A stretch of 64,000 nt of DNA from Nannocystis sp. RBIL2 (GTDB lineage: Bacteria > Myxococcota_A > Polyangia > Nannocystales > Nannocystaceae). The stretch spans positions 1,510,151 to 1,574,150 of the forward strand of contig NZ_JAPNJW010000002.1 of the NCBI RefSeq assembly GCF_026626745.1. The letters run 5' to 3'. The notes under the pieces are model-generated. The model was not told where the DNA came from, made no database searches, and saw only the letters and a program-made list of their open reading frames with translations. Each line of letters begins with the position of its first letter. Within the stretch, counting starts at the first letter, position 1. Positions 4,422 to 14,349 of this stretch are shown here, one piece after another. The translations under genes and the position numbers were made by a program.

Positions 4422-5162
4422 ATGACCCTCGTGATCGAATCACCCCTCGCGGACAAGATCGTGCTCGTCACCGGCGGCGGCTCGGGCCTCGGCGCCGAGA
4501 TCGGCCGCACCCTCGCGGCCGCCGGCGCCCACGTGATCGCCGCCGACATCCAGACCGGCCCGCTCGCCCGCCTCGTCGCCGAGGTGCGCGACCTCGGCGG
4601 CCGCATCGAGGCCGCCGAGCTCGACGTCCGCGACGCCGAGGCCGGGCAAGCCTTGATCGACGCCATCGTCGCCCGCCACGGCCGGCTCGACGTCCTCGTC
4701 AACAACGCCGGCACCGACAAGACCCTCGCGGTCGACGAGCTCAGCGTGGACGACATCGACCGCGTCCTCGCCGTCAACCTGCGCGGCCCCTTCGTCCTCA
4801 GCCGCGCCGCCTTCCCGCGCCTGCGCGCCCAGGGCGGCGGCTACATCGTCAACATCGTCTCGACCGCGGCCAAGCGGGCCTGGCAGAACGCCAGCGCCTA
4901 CCACGCCAGCAAGTGGGGCCTCCTCGGCCTGTCGCACGCGCTGCACGTCGAGGGCCGCCCGTTCGGCATCAAGGTCACCGCGCTGCTGGCCGGCGGCATG
5001 CGCACCCCCTTCATCCTCGACCGCTTCCCCGACACCCCGATCACCAACCTCCAGGACCCGCGCAACGTCGCCGAGACCATCCGCTTCCTCCTCGCCATGC
5101 CCGGCGAGTCGGTCGTCCCCGAGCTGATGGTCGTGCCCATGCGCGAGACGAGCTGGCCATGA
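4422..5162 (+). CDS. Classical short-chain dehydrogenase/reductase (SDR)
   Basis: TGGGSGLG Rossmann motif, NNAG, catalytic YHASK; 246 aa. Confidence 0.85.
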   Translation: MTLVIESPLADKIVLVTGGGSGLGAEIGRTLAAAGAHVIAADIQTGPLARLVAEVRDLGGRIEAAELDVRDAEAGQALIDAIVARHGRLDVLVNNAGTDKTLAVDELSVDDIDRVLAVNLRGPFVLSRAAFPRLRAQGGGYIVNIVSTAAKRAWQNASAYHASKWGLLGLSHALHVEGRPFGIKVTALLAGGMRTPFILDRFPDTPITNLQDPRNVAETIRFLLAMPGESVVPELMVVPMRETSWP

Positions 5163-5743
5163 CCCGCCTCCGCCCCGCCGCCTTCCTCGACAAGGACGGC
5201 ACCCTCATCGACGACGTCCCCTACAACGTCGACCCCGCCCACGTCCGCCTCACCCGCGGCGCCCGCGACGGCGCCTGGTCGCTGCGGGCCGCCGGCTACG
5301 CCCTCGTCGTCGTCACCAACCAGTCCGGCGTCGCCCGCGGCCTGTTCAGCGCCCACGACCTGCTCGGCGTCCAGGCCCGCATCGAGGACCTGCTCGACCT
5401 CGAGCTCGACGGCTTCTACTGGTGCCCGCACCTGCCCGCCGGCGTCGTCGCCGAGTACGCCATCGTCTGCGGCTGCCGCAAGCCCGCGCCCGGCCTGCTG
5501 ACCCGCGCCGCCGCCGAGCTCGGCCTCGACCTCGCGCGCTCGTGGATGATCGGCGACATCGCCAGCGACGTCGAGGCCGGCCGCCGCGCCGGCTGCCGCA
5601 CCGCCCTGATCGCCGCCTCGCTGCCCCCGGCCCTCCGCCCCGCGCCCACCCTCGTCGCCGCCGACCTCGCCGAGGCCGCCCGCCGGATCCTCGGCGACAC
5701 CGCCCGCAGCGACCACGACGAGCACCCCGCGCCCCTCGCCTGA
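5159..5743 (+). CDS. gmhB: D,D-heptose 1,7-bisphosphate phosphatase (HAD family)
   Basis: AFLDKDGTLIDDVPY HAD motif I, VVVTNQSGVARG, CxC..CRKP zinc motif (CGCRKPAPGLL), MIGDIASDVEAG motif; ATGA overlap with SDR stop. Confidence 0.8.
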   Translation: MTRLRPAAFLDKDGTLIDDVPYNVDPAHVRLTRGARDGAWSLRAAGYALVVVTNQSGVARGLFSAHDLLGVQARIEDLLDLELDGFYWCPHLPAGVVAEYAIVCGCRKPAPGLLTRAAAELGLDLARSWMIGDIASDVEAGRRAGCRTALIAASLPPALRPAPTLVAADLAEAARRILGDTARSDHDEHPAPLA

Positions 5744-9668: not shown

Positions 9669-9941
9669 AGGCCCGGTCACCGGGCTGCACAGGCCGAGCA
9701 CGAACAAGCGGCAGACCGCGACGCCAGACCTTGCGCTCCGTCATCCGGGCAGTACCCCGCCCGGCGGGGACCGCGACGCACCGAGGCTGGCCCGACAGGC
9801 AACGTCTCCAGCGGGGACGACGACCGGCACATCGAACGGGTGAGCGGCCGGCCGAAGATAGCGCCTGCCTTCGTGAGGCGGAACGCGGGACGTGCGCGCG
9901 CGATGCCGTCGTGGAGGAAGTTTGTTACTCTCCCTTCGGCC

Positions 9942-11462
9942 ATGACTCGGACGGCGGACAAGACCACCTCTCCGGTGTTTGTTTCGCTGTTGTGGCACAC
10001 GATGGCGGAGACGTCCTCGCAGGATCAGTTCGTGCTGGAGCGCGGCAAGGGCCGCAAGTGGGACGATTTCGGCTTCAAGACGCTCTACAGCCTCTATTGG
10101 CTCCCCGCTGGAGCCGAAGCCAAACAAGCCCGGTACATCGGGCCGATCAAGATCCTCCAGAGCGACGATCGCTCGACGGTGCTCCCCGATCGTTTCGCCG
10201 CGCTGAGCGAGTTTTACTGCAGCCTCGGCCAGAACCCCGAATACTACGAAAACCTCCAGGAGTTGGGTCCTGAGCTGGCTCAGGTTGTCCTGGTCGCGCT
10301 CCGCGACATCGCGTCCGATTCCGAAATAGAAGGAGATTTTGCCGAGCAAGAGGGTATCACCGTGTCGCTGCTTCGCTCGGTCTCAGCCCGCACGGCGATG
10401 AATTTGGCCCGTCAGAGGCTGCACGGCGTCGACGCGGATGTCGCTCCGGCCGAACTCACGTTTCGCTTTACCACGACGCTCTCGAAGGTCCTGCCGACTC
10501 CGTCCGCACCGTACCGCCTTGATGTGAGGCTCTCCGCCAGGGACGGGCGTCTTGGGCGCTTGATGGTGTTGGTCGGCAAGAACGCGACCGGCAAGAGCGG
10601 TTTGCTCAGCGTGCTCGGGCAGGCAGTCAGCGGCCTCGACAGCGAAGCAGGGAGCATCGACCCGCCCATCCGCGGCATCAGCCGTGTGATTGCGATCTCG
10701 TACAGCGCGTTCGACCCCTATCGATACTTCGGGAAGGCTCGACCGTCCACGGCTGTCGGATACTTTTATTGCGGGCTCCGCGATCATCATGGGGTCATCA
10801 ACCTCAAACACGCGTTCGACCGCAGTCACCGTCACCTTCGGCAGCTCGATCCAAGAGCCTGGCGTGACGCGATCCGGGCGTCGGGACTCGCCGACGAGGA
10901 GCCCTCGCTGGCGGCCGTGCTCGAGGAGCCAGACCCGAGCAAGTTGATCGAGCTCATGGAGACGCTCAGCTCCGGGCACAAGATTTTCCTGTTCGTGCTG
11001 GTCAACCTGCTCGCGACGATTCGGCCCCGGGCGCTGGTCCTCATCGACGAACCCGAGATCCATCTCCACCCGAACCTCTTGTCCAGCCTGATGCGCCTGC
11101 TCCACAAGATCCTGGACGAAAGCGACAGCTTCGCGGTCCTGGCCACCCATTCGCCCCAAGTGTTGCAAGAGGTGCCGGCGCGATACATCCGCATCGTCGA
11201 GCGAGTCGACGGGGCGCCCGCATTGAGGCTGTATCCAGGCGAGTCCTTCGGAGCGAACCTTGGCGAGATCATTCGCTTCGCCTTCGGCGTCGATGAGAAG
11301 AGCGCCAACTACTTCAAGATATTGAACTCGACCCTCGACGAGGAGACTCTCCGGCGCTGGTACGATCACACGCTCCACGCATCTTCGCTTAGCCTCGCGC
11401 CCTATACGGTCCTCGCCGATCGCCTCCACGTGAATGAGGAGGACGACGATGAGACGACTTAG
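9942..11462 (+). CDS. ABC/AAA_21-type ATPase, Septu PtuA-like, with about 210-aa N-terminal extension of unknown function
   Basis: Walker A VGKNATGKSGLLSVLG, ABC signature LSSGHKIF, Walker B ALVLIDEPEIHLHP, H-loop LATHSPQV; region GC clearly lower than flanks; start could also be 9840 or 9993. Confidence 0.8.
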   Translation: MTRTADKTTSPVFVSLLWHTMAETSSQDQFVLERGKGRKWDDFGFKTLYSLYWLPAGAEAKQARYIGPIKILQSDDRSTVLPDRFAALSEFYCSLGQNPEYYENLQELGPELAQVVLVALRDIASDSEIEGDFAEQEGITVSLLRSVSARTAMNLARQRLHGVDADVAPAELTFRFTTTLSKVLPTPSAPYRLDVRLSARDGRLGRLMVLVGKNATGKSGLLSVLGQAVSGLDSEAGSIDPPIRGISRVIAISYSAFDPYRYFGKARPSTAVGYFYCGLRDHHGVINLKHAFDRSHRHLRQLDPRAWRDAIRASGLADEEPSLAAVLEEPDPSKLIELMETLSSGHKIFLFVLVNLLATIRPRALVLIDEPEIHLHPNLLSSLMRLLHKILDESDSFAVLATHSPQVLQEVPARYIRIVERVDGAPALRLYPGESFGANLGEIIRFAFGVDEKSANYFKILNSTLDEETLRRWYDHTLHASSLSLAPYTVLADRLHVNEEDDDETT

Positions 11463-12348
11463 GCCGTATGGAGGGGATCCCTGGCAGTCCTTCCTCGATA
11501 TCTGCGGCGCATCGACGCACCAACGGCGTCGTCCGCGGCTCGCGGAGGTCCGCGCGGTCATCGAGGACCGCTATCAGGATTACCTGAATTTGAACGGAGA
11601 CTTCCTCAGAATCGCAGCATACTCCGACTTCTCCAAGGAGCAATCGGACGCGCTCAAGAAATGCTACGAGACCGAGGCGCCGGCGCTCAAACTCCTGAAA
11701 GAGGCGATCCGACAGCTCCAGGACCCGTCAGTCCGCGGCGTCTGTCAGAATTGCGGGCTGAACGAGCCGAACACGTTCGACCACTACATTCCCAAGGACG
11801 AATTCCCGGAGTTTGCGATTCACCCGCATAACATCGTCCCGTGCTGCCAGCAGTGCAACGACCTCCGGCGCCGCAAGCCGTGGCGCGACGAACATGGATG
11901 TCGGACGTTCCACTTCTATTTCGACGATGTCGAAGTGAGTGAAAGACACCTGGTTGCGAGGATCATCCGCGACGGCAACGACGAGCCGCGGATGCTCTTC
12001 GAGTGTTCGTCCTCCCCTGAGGCCCCCGGTTTCGGCGGAAGGTACTCTCGCCACGCGGAGACGCTGCAACTCCCGCGGCGGCTGGAAGAGCGCGCGCCGA
12101 CAGAGCTGGATCGAATCTGCAATGAGTTGGCGGCGACGGCCGAACTGCTGCCCGGAGCTCCAGAGGCTTCGGAAAGAATAGACCGGTTGCGGGACCGGTC
12201 AAGGAACGTCGCTACACGCATGAAGAAGGTCCGCGGCCCGAACCACTGGGAGGTTGCGGCCTGGCATGCGGTCGCGGCGGCTCCGTGGTTCATCGAGCGC
12301 TGCCTCGCGCGCCAGAATAGGGAGGCGAGCTGTGATGACCAGGTCTGA
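11449..12348 (+). CDS. HNH endonuclease-domain protein (PtuB-like)
   Basis: CQNCGLNEPNTFDHYIPKDEFPEFAIHPHNIVPCCQQCN = CxxC..DH..N..CxxCN HNH motif; 14-nt overlap with ATPase stop; alternative ATG 11434. Confidence 0.75.
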   Translation: MRRLRPYGGDPWQSFLDICGASTHQRRRPRLAEVRAVIEDRYQDYLNLNGDFLRIAAYSDFSKEQSDALKKCYETEAPALKLLKEAIRQLQDPSVRGVCQNCGLNEPNTFDHYIPKDEFPEFAIHPHNIVPCCQQCNDLRRRKPWRDEHGCRTFHFYFDDVEVSERHLVARIIRDGNDEPRMLFECSSSPEAPGFGGRYSRHAETLQLPRRLEERAPTELDRICNELAATAELLPGAPEASERIDRLRDRSRNVATRMKKVRGPNHWEVAAWHAVAAAPWFIERCLARQNREASCDDQV

Positions 12349-12808
12349 CTGGCGCCATGACGCGAGGGCGAGCCTCGAGTCGCTGCGCGAGGCGCTCGGC
12401 GAACTCCAGGACAGGTGGGGGTTCGCTTGCGAAGACGATCCGATCGACGACGACGACGACGACGACGACGCTTACGAGTATGATCAGCTCTCCTCAGACA
12501 TCGAGACGGCGCTCGATACGCTCGTAGACGAACTGACCCAGCACCAGGCGACGCCGGACGTGGAAGAGCTCACGGTCGACGAGTTGCTCGCCAGGTATGT
12601 TACGGACGGTCTGGTGAGCCCAGAGCAGGTCAAGGTCGCGGCGGCGCTCGTGGACGCTCTCGGCTCCCGGGGGTCCCGGGGCGCTCGGACCAGCGAGCTA
12701 ATCATGGGGCCGAGCTACGAGCAGCTCCTGAGCGTGGTAGACGCGCTCGAGCGGCTCGTCGACCACACCGCCGACGGGGAGGAAGAACCGGCCAATGCCA
12801 TGGACTGA
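12335..12808 (+). CDS. Small strongly acidic hypothetical protein (poly-Asp run; possible DNA-mimic/immunity factor)
   Basis: 157 aa, DDPIDDDDDDDDAYEYDQ, net very negative; 14-nt overlap with HNH gene stop and with next gene start. Confidence 0.55.
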   Translation: MTRSDWRHDARASLESLREALGELQDRWGFACEDDPIDDDDDDDDAYEYDQLSSDIETALDTLVDELTQHQATPDVEELTVDELLARYVTDGLVSPEQVKVAAALVDALGSRGSRGARTSELIMGPSYEQLLSVVDALERLVDHTADGEEEPANAMD

Positions 12809-13421
12809 CGAGGAAGACCTGGCTCGTTGCCTCGAGCGCGCCGGCGTCGCGCTCGCGGGTCTGCGCGAGCGCTGCTCGGAGGTCGTCGTGTTCGGTTCTC
12901 GCGCGGCGGGCATCGGCGATGCGAGGTCCGACTGGGACGTGCTGTGCGTCGGCGACGGGGCGACGCGGCGGACGCGAGAGCTGGACCTCGTCTGGATCTC
13001 CGCATCATTTACACGTGGCGACGCGTGGACGACGGGCGAGCTCGCGTCGCACGTCGTCACTTACGGGCGATGGATCGTCGGGAACCCGGGTCCATGGGTA
13101 TCCCACGTGGCCATCACTTCGCAGACCGTCAGACGCAAGGTTCGCTGGATCCAGACGCACGTCGACACGTGGCGACGATTCTGGCCGCGCTGCTCGCCCC
13201 AACTGCGAACGCGCTACGCGGCAACGCTGAGGTACAACTTTCTCCGCCTTGATTTTTTGCTGCGCAAACAGGCGGTGCCACCGCGGCAGAGCCTGGATAG
13301 GTGGTTCGCGGAGCTCTCCGATAGGGCAGAGTGGTCCGAAGCGATGGCGGCAGTCGCCAAGGTCAGGGACGACTTCGTCTCCCGCGAATTGCTGCCGCGT
13401 GTGTGCCGGTCGTCTGGCTGA
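12795..13421 (+). CDS. Minimal nucleotidyltransferase (MNT)-domain protein with C-terminal extension carrying a possible HEPN-like Rx4H motif
   Basis: VVVFGSRAAGIGDARSDWDVLCVG = GS-x9-DxD NTase fold motif; C-terminal RWIQTH. Confidence 0.7.
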   Translation: MPWTDEEDLARCLERAGVALAGLRERCSEVVVFGSRAAGIGDARSDWDVLCVGDGATRRTRELDLVWISASFTRGDAWTTGELASHVVTYGRWIVGNPGPWVSHVAITSQTVRRKVRWIQTHVDTWRRFWPRCSPQLRTRYAATLRYNFLRLDFLLRKQAVPPRQSLDRWFAELSDRAEWSEAMAAVAKVRDDFVSRELLPRVCRSSG

Positions 13422-13813
13422 CCGCCTGCCGGCGCACCCGCCTGCCCCCTGGTGCAGGTTACCGCGCGCCACAGATGTGCCCGCCTGTCGCTCGAGCCTG
13501 CTCGTCACCAGAAGGACGGCGTGCAGTAGGACAGCCCACATGCGAGACATCAAGAAATCATAAGCCTCCGCCGCTGCGCGCGAAGCAGCGAAGCTCCGGC
13601 TGAGACCGTCCGCCCCGCCTCGCAGCCTGAGGCGCACGAAACGATTCGATCGCCGCGCACCGTGCGCGACTGCCTGCGACCCTGCAGCGGGCGCAAACGG
13701 GATCCTCAAAAAAGCGGCCCGTACGGCCCGCTACGCCGCATCCCCGACGATTAGTGAGAACGGCCGTGCAGGCAACTGCCAACAAAATCTTCCCCGAGGA
13801 GGGAACACTCGCC

Positions 13814-13999
13814 ATGCATCTCGAACGAGTTGAGACCCGATCGGAACAGCACCACGGCACCGCCGTGGAGCCGTGGAGCAACCTCGACGAGGACGACTTT
13901 CTCCTCGCCGCCGAGGCCAGCCTCGAAGCGCTGCGCGAAGGCGAGGACGAGGAGGAGCTGTCCCCGGACGACATCGAGGAAGTGCCCGAAGATCAGTAG
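13814..13999 (+). CDS. Small acidic hypothetical protein
   Basis: 61 aa ORF with GAGGAGG 9 nt upstream of ATG; no recognisable domain. Confidence 0.3.
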   Translation: MHLERVETRSEQHHGTAVEPWSNLDEDDFLLAAEASLEALREGEDEEELSPDDIEEVPEDQ

Positions 14000-14349
14000 C
14001 CCGGCCTGATCACGCGGTCCGTGCCGATACCACGAATCACCCGAGCGTCGCGGGATTCCTTACATCATCCAGCCCTTGCTCGCTACCGGGCACCGCTCCC
14101 ACCGCGGATCCCAGTCCCAATCGTGCCCCTCGCCCGGAAGAGTAATTGCTGCCCGGGCCGAAGCCCGCGCGAACGCCCTCGAGGCGGCGCCTCGGCGCCT
14201 GCCTGACGCAGCTCGTCGCGGGAGGCCCGGCGCCTCGGCGCCTGCCTGACGCAGCTCGCCACGGGACGCCCGACTCTCGCCCCGAGCTCCCACCCGCGGC
14301 GGATGCGACCCCGCCGTCCCGCCCCGTCCTGCGGCATCATGGCCCTGCC

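Follow-up and report, generated by a model that had tools for sequence, protein, structure and literature searches.

In the HepT/MntA toxin-antitoxin pair, the nucleotidyltransferase (NTase) MntA, which carries the signature GSX10DXD, transfers AMP to Tyr104 of HepT, and oligo-AMPylation of this tyrosine beside the HEPN active site neutralises the toxin (Yao et al., PMC7641770). In the Hailong system, HalB constitutively makes template-independent oligo-deoxyadenylate (oligo-dA), primed on its own tyrosine hydroxyl, which keeps the membrane channel HalA closed; a phage exonuclease that degrades oligo-dA triggers defence (PMC13434031). In retron-Septu, listed by PADLOC as 'Septu type II', a complex of reverse transcriptase and multicopy single-stranded DNA (RT-msDNA) sequesters the effector PtuAB until infection (PMC12819146; PMC8565338). 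Here, a four-gene cassette was analysed in a 64,000-nucleotide (nt) stretch of Nannocystis sp. RBIL2 (contig NZ_JAPNJW010000002.1, positions 1,510,151 to 1,574,150; 'the window'), in which co-oriented genes A and B, encoding a PtuA-like ATPase and a PtuB-like HNH nuclease, are followed by gene C, encoding a small acidic protein, and by the NTase gene D (Table 1). The original prediction, made from the window sequence, suggested, as a speculation, that the product of gene C might be a DNA mimic in the manner of Ocr and ArdA, holding the HNH/ATPase complex inactive. The results given below indicate that C is, in all probability, a functional partner of D rather than primarily a nuclease-directed DNA mimic.

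The occurrence of gene C was followed in 5.8 billion proteins by a word-indexed search and in 1.84 billion cluster representatives by an exhaustive HMMER profile search, and by sequence the family was rare, with four close relatives and only seven clusters found, respectively. Where the genomic context of these members could be read, the gene was preceded by a PtuB-like gene and followed by a D homologue (L001, L002, L005, L006 and L007/L008; L and P numbers designate loci); in the most distant member found by sequence (P0015), D was directly downstream, followed by a GmrSD-like gene, and no obvious adjacent PtuAB was present. The D family was much larger than the C family (225 clusters in a profile search), and D loci were drawn from genome and metagenome collections, using our own open reading frame (ORF) calls and hidden Markov models (HMMs) for A, B, C and D. 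Wherever the sequence ahead of D was long enough, a C-like ORF of 120-162 amino acids (aa) was located directly upstream, mostly overlapping D, and these ORFs aligned over their full length with C (alignment A4), even where the C HMM matched weakly or missed. The C-D pair was present in approximately 20 distinct loci from several phyla, 14 of which were PtuAB-linked in the order A-B-C-D (among them Archangium minus, L012; Hyalangium versicolor, L040; and Pseudenhygromyxa, L044). Upstream of other C-D pairs a membrane protein was encoded (150-230 aa, with two to three transmembrane (TM) helices), all such proteins belonging to a single family for which no match was found to any PDB chain (HalA included) or Pfam entry. 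Among the loci examined, no C was found without an adjacent D. Since the upstream neighbour is either PtuAB or a membrane protein, C-D constitutes the constant core while the neighbouring effector varies, and the picture of C acting on the nuclease with the NTase as a bystander consequently needs revising. In the PtuAB-linked loci compared, C-D mostly overlapped the upstream effector gene by 4-14 nt, with a 9-nt gap in L012.

Several of these loci had further features. The loci in which the TM protein replaces PtuAB form three-gene sister systems of Hailong-like layout (L013:4916-6639, L014:4991-6648, L032:49-1569 and L034:412-1957). The cassettes of L006 (2409-5878) and of the P0015 contig are located in defence islands, with a BrxC/BrxD-like ATPase and a DEAD/Cas3-like helicase downstream of the former and the GmrSD-like protein downstream of the latter. 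A 377-aa ORF follows D in L037 and may represent a third type of effector. A Nannocystis-like contig from a metagenome-assembled genome (MAG; L003:1-1500) carries genes C and D and the last part of gene B, all three frameshifted, owing either to decay of this cassette copy or to faulty assembly.

Gene C extends from an ATG at 12335 to a TGA at 12806-12808, with the sequence GGGAGG 9 nt 5' of the ATG. The reading frame is real and under purifying selection, as judged by its GC content at third codon positions (0.84 in frame, relative to 0.40 in the worst frame), by its ratio of nonsynonymous to synonymous substitution rates (dN/dS) against the N. radixulma orthologue (0.27, with 0.25 and 0.16 for the HNH and NTase genes, respectively), and by the start methionine shared among its orthologues. 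Nannocystis sp. ILAH1 has an identical protein, annotated as hypothetical. The hyper-acidic character noted in the original prediction was confirmed, the product having an isoelectric point (pI) of 4.05 and a net charge of -31 (25 Asp, 17 Glu, 1 Lys and 10 Arg), with eight consecutive aspartates at residues 38-45, and much of the charge lay in a predicted non-helical loop (residues 28-42) and in the tail. The aspartate run, encoded by the window's longest perfect trinucleotide repeat, is the only run of at least seven acidic residues in the six frames of the 64 kb. The coupling to both flanking genes also held: the HNH gene ends at 12348 and the NTase gene starts with an ATG at 12795, each overlapping gene C by 14 nt, and with the same A-B-C-D order in 14 loci gene C is no chance ORF, nor do its homologues occur only in unrelated contexts.

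Within the family the aspartate run was not conserved, and acidity as such was widespread rather than universal. In close relatives the aspartate run was replaced by DDEEDDED, DDDDDD or GEEDDD, and by GESDVHDDD in the protein of L002, which is 48% identical to C. Sixteen of the 18 tabulated homologues had a pI of 4.05-4.8 (two further homologues had values of 4.15 and 4.47), and all 14 PtuAB-linked C proteins were acidic, with net charges of -12 to -43. Poly-acidic tracts were found at the C-terminus instead in L025:5496-5972, L030:119-409, L012:5592-5984 and L040:4616-5020, the L025 homologue (net charge -43) ending in EDDEDDDDDDDDDDDDAD, which includes a run of 12 aspartates; hyper-acidic low-complexity tracts have thus been gained repeatedly and independently at different positions. 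Two homologues were non-acidic, those of L034 (approximately 926-1290) and L037 (approximately 5010-5381), with net charges of 0 and +3, respectively, and both kept an xSYGEL loop.

What was conserved was a helical framework (for example, the segment LT[VIL]DELLA) and one loop, of which L109, G110 and S114 were invariant across six cassettes, the Nannocystis-type clade having the form L-G-[ST]-x-x-S. In other clades the S114 column held a tyrosine (GSYG, VSYG, MSYG, ISYG, ERYDG and ASYGEL in alignment A4); a few members had the loop tyrosine offset by a column or two (DLYPFG, NGYFGD), and an NDYRGE loop was also seen. Across 17 homologues no arginine or histidine was conserved in the loop or the last helix, only the hydroxyl residue being kept. 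Tyr128 of C was also considered as an acceptor and was rejected, the position being histidine or leucine in homologues.

For C, searches of Pfam, PADLOC, PHROGs and NCBIfam, and of the PDB with single-sequence and 17-sequence profiles, gave chance-level matches only. An AlphaFold2 model built from a four-sequence alignment was all-helical (predicted local distance difference test score (pLDDT) 78.5; predicted template modelling score 0.75), with helices at residues 3-27, 43-69, 81-86, 96-110, 121-124 and 128-147 and no helix over residues 28-42. Residues 112-116, within the conserved loop, had a pLDDT below 50 and are predicted to be flexible. The top Foldseek ranks for this model were occupied by HEPN toxins and other HEPN-domain proteins (E-values of 0.1-1, not significant alone); in a structure comparison generic helical bundles ranked below the HEPN proteins (about 8.7 or below), with the same ranking in Foldseek, and neither list contained Ocr or ArdA. 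The case for C as a HEPN-fold protein is moderately strong on the predicted structure, and was strengthened considerably by the adjacent gene encoding an MNT-type NTase. The conserved loop occupies what we take, from HEPN topology, to be the place of the RX4HXY segment in HepT. As the Rx4-6H motif is absent and no arginine or histidine is conserved in the segment, C is not an RNase toxin and, as a HEPN-fold protein, would be catalytically inactive.

Gene D reached the Pfam threshold for NTP_transf_2, and its model, built from a 76-sequence alignment, consisted of a pol-beta NTase domain followed by a helical domain (pLDDT 95.6). The GSX10DXD residues were invariant in the 76 family members, and the third carboxylate is probably D64. 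The best match of a D-family profile was HalB (E-value 9.4e-5, residues 30-91), followed by the 7ae2 MNT antitoxin (2.6e-4). Identity between D and HalB was 16%, the score against NCBIfam MntA_antitoxin was 17.1 bits (cut-off 60), and PADLOC gave weak motif-level matches only. No tyrosine was strongly conserved in D: the best column reached 57%, and a tyrosine was present among the last 25 residues in 15 of the 76 homologues. In the six cassettes computed, D was basic (pI 8.4-9.6). Within the helical domain, R146 and R151 of an R-x4-R arrangement (consensus LRRDLQR) were conserved in 97% and 100% of the 76 sequences, respectively; this resembles the HEPN Rx4-6H motif with arginine in place of histidine, and possibly serves to bind phosphate or an oligonucleotide. 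The sequence RWIQTH (residues 117-122) was evaluated as a catalytic HEPN Rx4H motif and rejected, the histidine being replaced by lysine or arginine in L005 and L006.

Compared with HepT/MntA, the C-D pair shares a small HEPN-fold protein encoded beside a pol-beta NTase with the GSX10DXD signature, and C has a hydroxyl residue before its last helix, where HepT has the tyrosine modified by MntA. The pair differs in that C lacks the RX4HXY (Rx4-6H) RNase motif and, in the clade of the window, has serine rather than tyrosine; the gene order is reversed, D being downstream of C whereas MNT is upstream of HEPN in HepT/MntA; D, at 208 aa, is larger and has a helical domain in addition, MntA being a single-domain protein of less than 150 aa; and C-D is part of a larger effector operon. 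The likeness to Hailong consists in D being close in size to HalB (217-237 aa) and having the same two-domain layout (NTase plus helical, HEPN-like), in the membrane protein that precedes some C-D relatives as HalA partners HalB and, by analogy, in a proposed logic in which the constitutive product of an NTase would guard a toxic effector. Unlike Hailong, the window has a PtuAB-like effector rather than a HalA membrane channel, an acidic HEPN-like gene is inserted between effector and NTase, and D shows no strongly conserved tyrosine that might serve in self-priming. To Septu and PDC-M01 the locus is linked by strong matches of genes A and B to PDC-M01A/B and PtuA, and by the adjacent, co-oriented ATPase and HNH genes; Septu, however, has two genes, where four overlapping genes are conserved here as a block in 14 loci. 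As in retron-Septu (the type I-A retron Ec78/Eco7), PtuAB would have been co-opted by a polymerase-based accessory module, in this case a pol-beta NTase and a HEPN-like protein rather than a reverse transcriptase and a non-coding RNA, and located downstream rather than upstream of ptuAB. C resembles Ocr and ArdA in its very low pI and strong net negative charge, but shares neither their sequence nor their fold; its gene is host-encoded within a defence operon, and its acidity derives in part from an unconserved low-complexity tract, with two non-acidic members in the family.

On balance, and by a modest preference, we favour the reading that C is an inactive HEPN-fold protein and the obligate partner of the HalB/MntA-like D, with C-D forming a portable guard module placed on toxic effectors. 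D, through its GSX10DXD site, would nucleotidylylate the loop hydroxyl of C (Ser114 here, tyrosine in other clades), perhaps extending it into an oligonucleotide; the resulting product, or a C-D complex, would hold the effector silent (PtuAB here, the membrane protein elsewhere), and interference of a phage with this guard would free PtuAB. The acidity of C fits binding to D, since D is basic, and the negative charge could aid contact with the NTase, with nucleic-acid-binding surfaces of the effector, or with both, in which case (GAC)8 would be a lineage-specific exaggeration. Retron-Septu and Hailong, as analogies, make a regulatory role for C, one that keeps the effector off, plausible, and the regulatory part of the original prediction is to that extent retained, although the invariable partner of C is the NTase and not the HNH/ATPase pair. 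Covalent modification or priming at Ser114, as a part of this scheme, is put forward tentatively. The further proposal that C is a protein primer, on whose loop hydroxyl D builds a short oligonucleotide, the conjugate then acting as an inhibitory guard on the Septu-type ATPase-nuclease, or on the membrane effector of the sister systems, until stripped off by a nuclease or binding protein of the phage, we regard as rather doubtful. Several observations weigh against the guard reading. Serine replaces tyrosine in the clade of the window, so that the acceptor idea is weakest for gene C itself, and the equivalence of Ser114 with the HepT tyrosine is one of position only. The gene order, with the HEPN-like gene first, and the size and two-domain composition of D are unlike those of HepT/MntA, and D already contains a helical domain (HEPN-like in HalB), leaving a second HEPN-like protein unexplained. 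The HEPN assignment itself comes from a four-sequence model with non-significant Foldseek E-values, and sequence methods, including the 17-sequence profile, linked C to no HEPN family.

If the NTase were incidental and C alone imitated the charge pattern of DNA, it would plug the site at which the HNH/ATPase complex binds DNA or RNA and so keep the complex inactive. The net charge of C, the acidity of all 14 PtuAB-linked members and the repeated appearance of poly-acidic tracts at different positions (in an internal loop here, C-terminal elsewhere) agree with such a role, and a genuine polyanion, the msDNA, is what sequesters PtuAB in retron-Septu. Yet C was never seen without D and is found without PtuAB, its predicted fold is HEPN-like rather than Ocr- or ArdA-like, and no sequence match to a mimic family was obtained in Pfam, PHROGs or PDB. 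The poly-aspartate, moreover, is encoded by a slippage-prone, unconserved microsatellite, and two members retaining the SYG loop are not acidic. A DNA-mimic identity is accordingly unlikely; the acidity possibly makes a partial contribution as a polyanion mimic.

A gene for an acidic protein placed directly ahead of one for a basic protein is also the classic layout of an antitoxin and its toxin, HEPN/MNT modules are reported to be the most abundant predicted toxin-antitoxin modules (PMC7641770), and C-D moves as a unit between contexts, all of which would fit an independent pair with C as a type II-style antitoxin to a toxic D (as in AbiEi/AbiEii or MenA/MenT), or a decayed HepT/MntA pair with no link to PtuAB. 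Against such independence, C-D overlaps or nearly abuts the effector gene before it in those PtuAB-linked loci that were compared, and a putative effector was always found beside it; the closest relatives of D, HalB and MntA, are moreover the protective and not the toxic components of their systems, and C, having no RNase motif, cannot be a HepT-type toxin, so we give this explanation only a small chance. A further reading is that of a passive adaptor, in which unmodified C would form a bridge between D and the effector (PtuAB or the membrane protein) or bind an oligonucleotide made by D, with the loop as contact surface. It draws on the same synteny and fold evidence, a switch from tyrosine to serine between clades is easier to accept if the residue makes a contact than if it is a catalytic acceptor, and D has a helical domain of its own, as has the self-priming HalB. 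An acidic protein, however, makes a poor oligonucleotide binder, D shows no strongly conserved tyrosine on which it might prime itself, and a strictly kept hydroxyl in a disordered loop is more typical of a modification site; a purely passive role therefore seems improbable.

Table 1. Features of the cassette in the window and of the C-D loci compared with it (window positions, first letter = 1)
Feature	Position or loci	Strand	Description
Gene C	12335..12808	+	157-aa acidic protein; predicted all-helical HEPN-type bundle, Rx4-6H motif absent
(GAC)8 microsatellite, perfect	12446-12469	+	Encodes Asp38-Asp45; in the helix 1-helix 2 loop; unconserved in homologues
Conserved loop L109-G-S-R-G-S114-R-G-A-R118	12659..12688	+	Between the helix at residues 96-110 and the last long helix (128-147); candidate nucleotidylylation site Ser114 (12674-12676)
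Gene D, nucleotidyltransferase	12795..13421	+	208 aa, pI 9.6; N-terminal pol-beta/MNT-type domain and C-terminal helical domain
Gene D signature G34-S35-x10-D46-W-D48 (GSX10DXD)	12894..12938	+	Sequence G34 S35 RAAGIGDARS D46 W D48
Gene A, PtuA-like ABC/AAA_15-AAA_21 ATPase	9942..11462	+	506 aa from ATG 9942; mechanical ORF from GTG 9840
Gene B, PtuB-like HNH nuclease	11434..12348	+	304 aa; overlaps end of gene A
Low-GC island	9700..14000 (roughly)	unstranded	GC 0.59-0.71, flanks approximately 0.75; holds the four-gene cassette, all co-oriented
PtuAB-linked C-D loci	Window, L001, L002, L005, L006, L007, L011, L012, L015, L025, L035, L036, L040, L044		
C-D loci with upstream membrane protein (4)	L013; L014/L026/L027/L041-43; L032; L034		
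C-D loci in other contexts	P0015 contig; L037		

Genes A and B are, from their sequences, a Septu-like ATPase-nuclease pair, given the matches to PDC-M01A/B and PtuA and a visible HNH core. Gene A matched PADLOC PDC-M01A (1.5e-104), PtuA (3e-61) and Pfam AAA_21 (1.2e-17) and AAA_15 (2.9e-11), and contains a Walker A (GKNATGKS) and a Walker B motif (LVLIDEPE); its start was chosen by homology to the N. radixulma (L001) orthologue (MIRTADKTTS...). Gene B, whose true start may be Met6 at 11449, matched PDC-M01B (1.6e-46) and narrowly missed the Pfam HNH cut-off (4e-4, 20.9 bits; cut-off 21.4), the HNH core being readable as CQNCG...DH...N...CCQQCN (CxxC...DH...N...CxxC). The C-terminus of gene A (11440-11459) encodes an acidic tail, NEEDDDETT, which is kept as EEDDETT in L001 and EGDDETP in L002.

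The cassette occupies a low-GC island, and in N. radixulma it was found in a different chromosomal neighbourhood, while in a Polyangia MAG (L007/L008) it adjoins an integrase. Scans of the island ends in the window for direct repeats, tRNA genes or an integrase gave no tRNA and no convincing flanking repeats, and a promoter and terminator scan was uninformative for the + strand. A 43-nt unit is present in two tandem copies with 93% identity on the right-hand border of the island (14185-14270). A second small acidic ORF (13754-13999, + strand; 81 aa, pI 4.05, net charge -19) is located in the island tail, 330 nt past gene D. Over 44 nt (13895-13938) it matches the start of gene C (12347-12390) with 73% identity, its peptide AAEASLEALRE resembles ARASLESLRE of gene C, and it had a weak PHROG match (phrog_13934, E-value 0.007); it may be the remnant of a C-like gene, or the likeness may be due to chance.

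Literature searches on PtuAB with an NTase, on PDC-M01, on PtuC and on Hailong with HEPN, HNH and ATPase components yielded no description of the four-gene architecture or of the C family. The locus combines a Septu/PDC-M01 effector with an NTase module of Hailong/MntA type and a new family of predicted HEPN fold, and is not categorically new. Septu and Hailong have recently been dissected, and in each the product of a polymerase silences a toxic effector (retron msDNA for PtuAB, HalB oligo-dA for HalA). In the locus described here, a PtuAB-type effector is joined to a HalB/MntA-like NTase and a previously unclassified protein of predicted HEPN fold, and the C-D add-on is also found on membrane effectors, with the Ser114 loop as a concrete candidate modification site. 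If C-D does act as a guard, the principle of an inhibitory nucleotide signal would extend to a new enzyme-partner pair, catalytically dead HEPN proteins would acquire a function, and a four-gene subtype would be recognised that current tools report only as PDC-M01. Were C in addition to serve as a protein primer, this would constitute a third independent solution after retron msDNA and Hailong oligo-dA, and would tie the chemistry of HEPN/MNT toxin-antitoxin modules to the regulation of defence systems.

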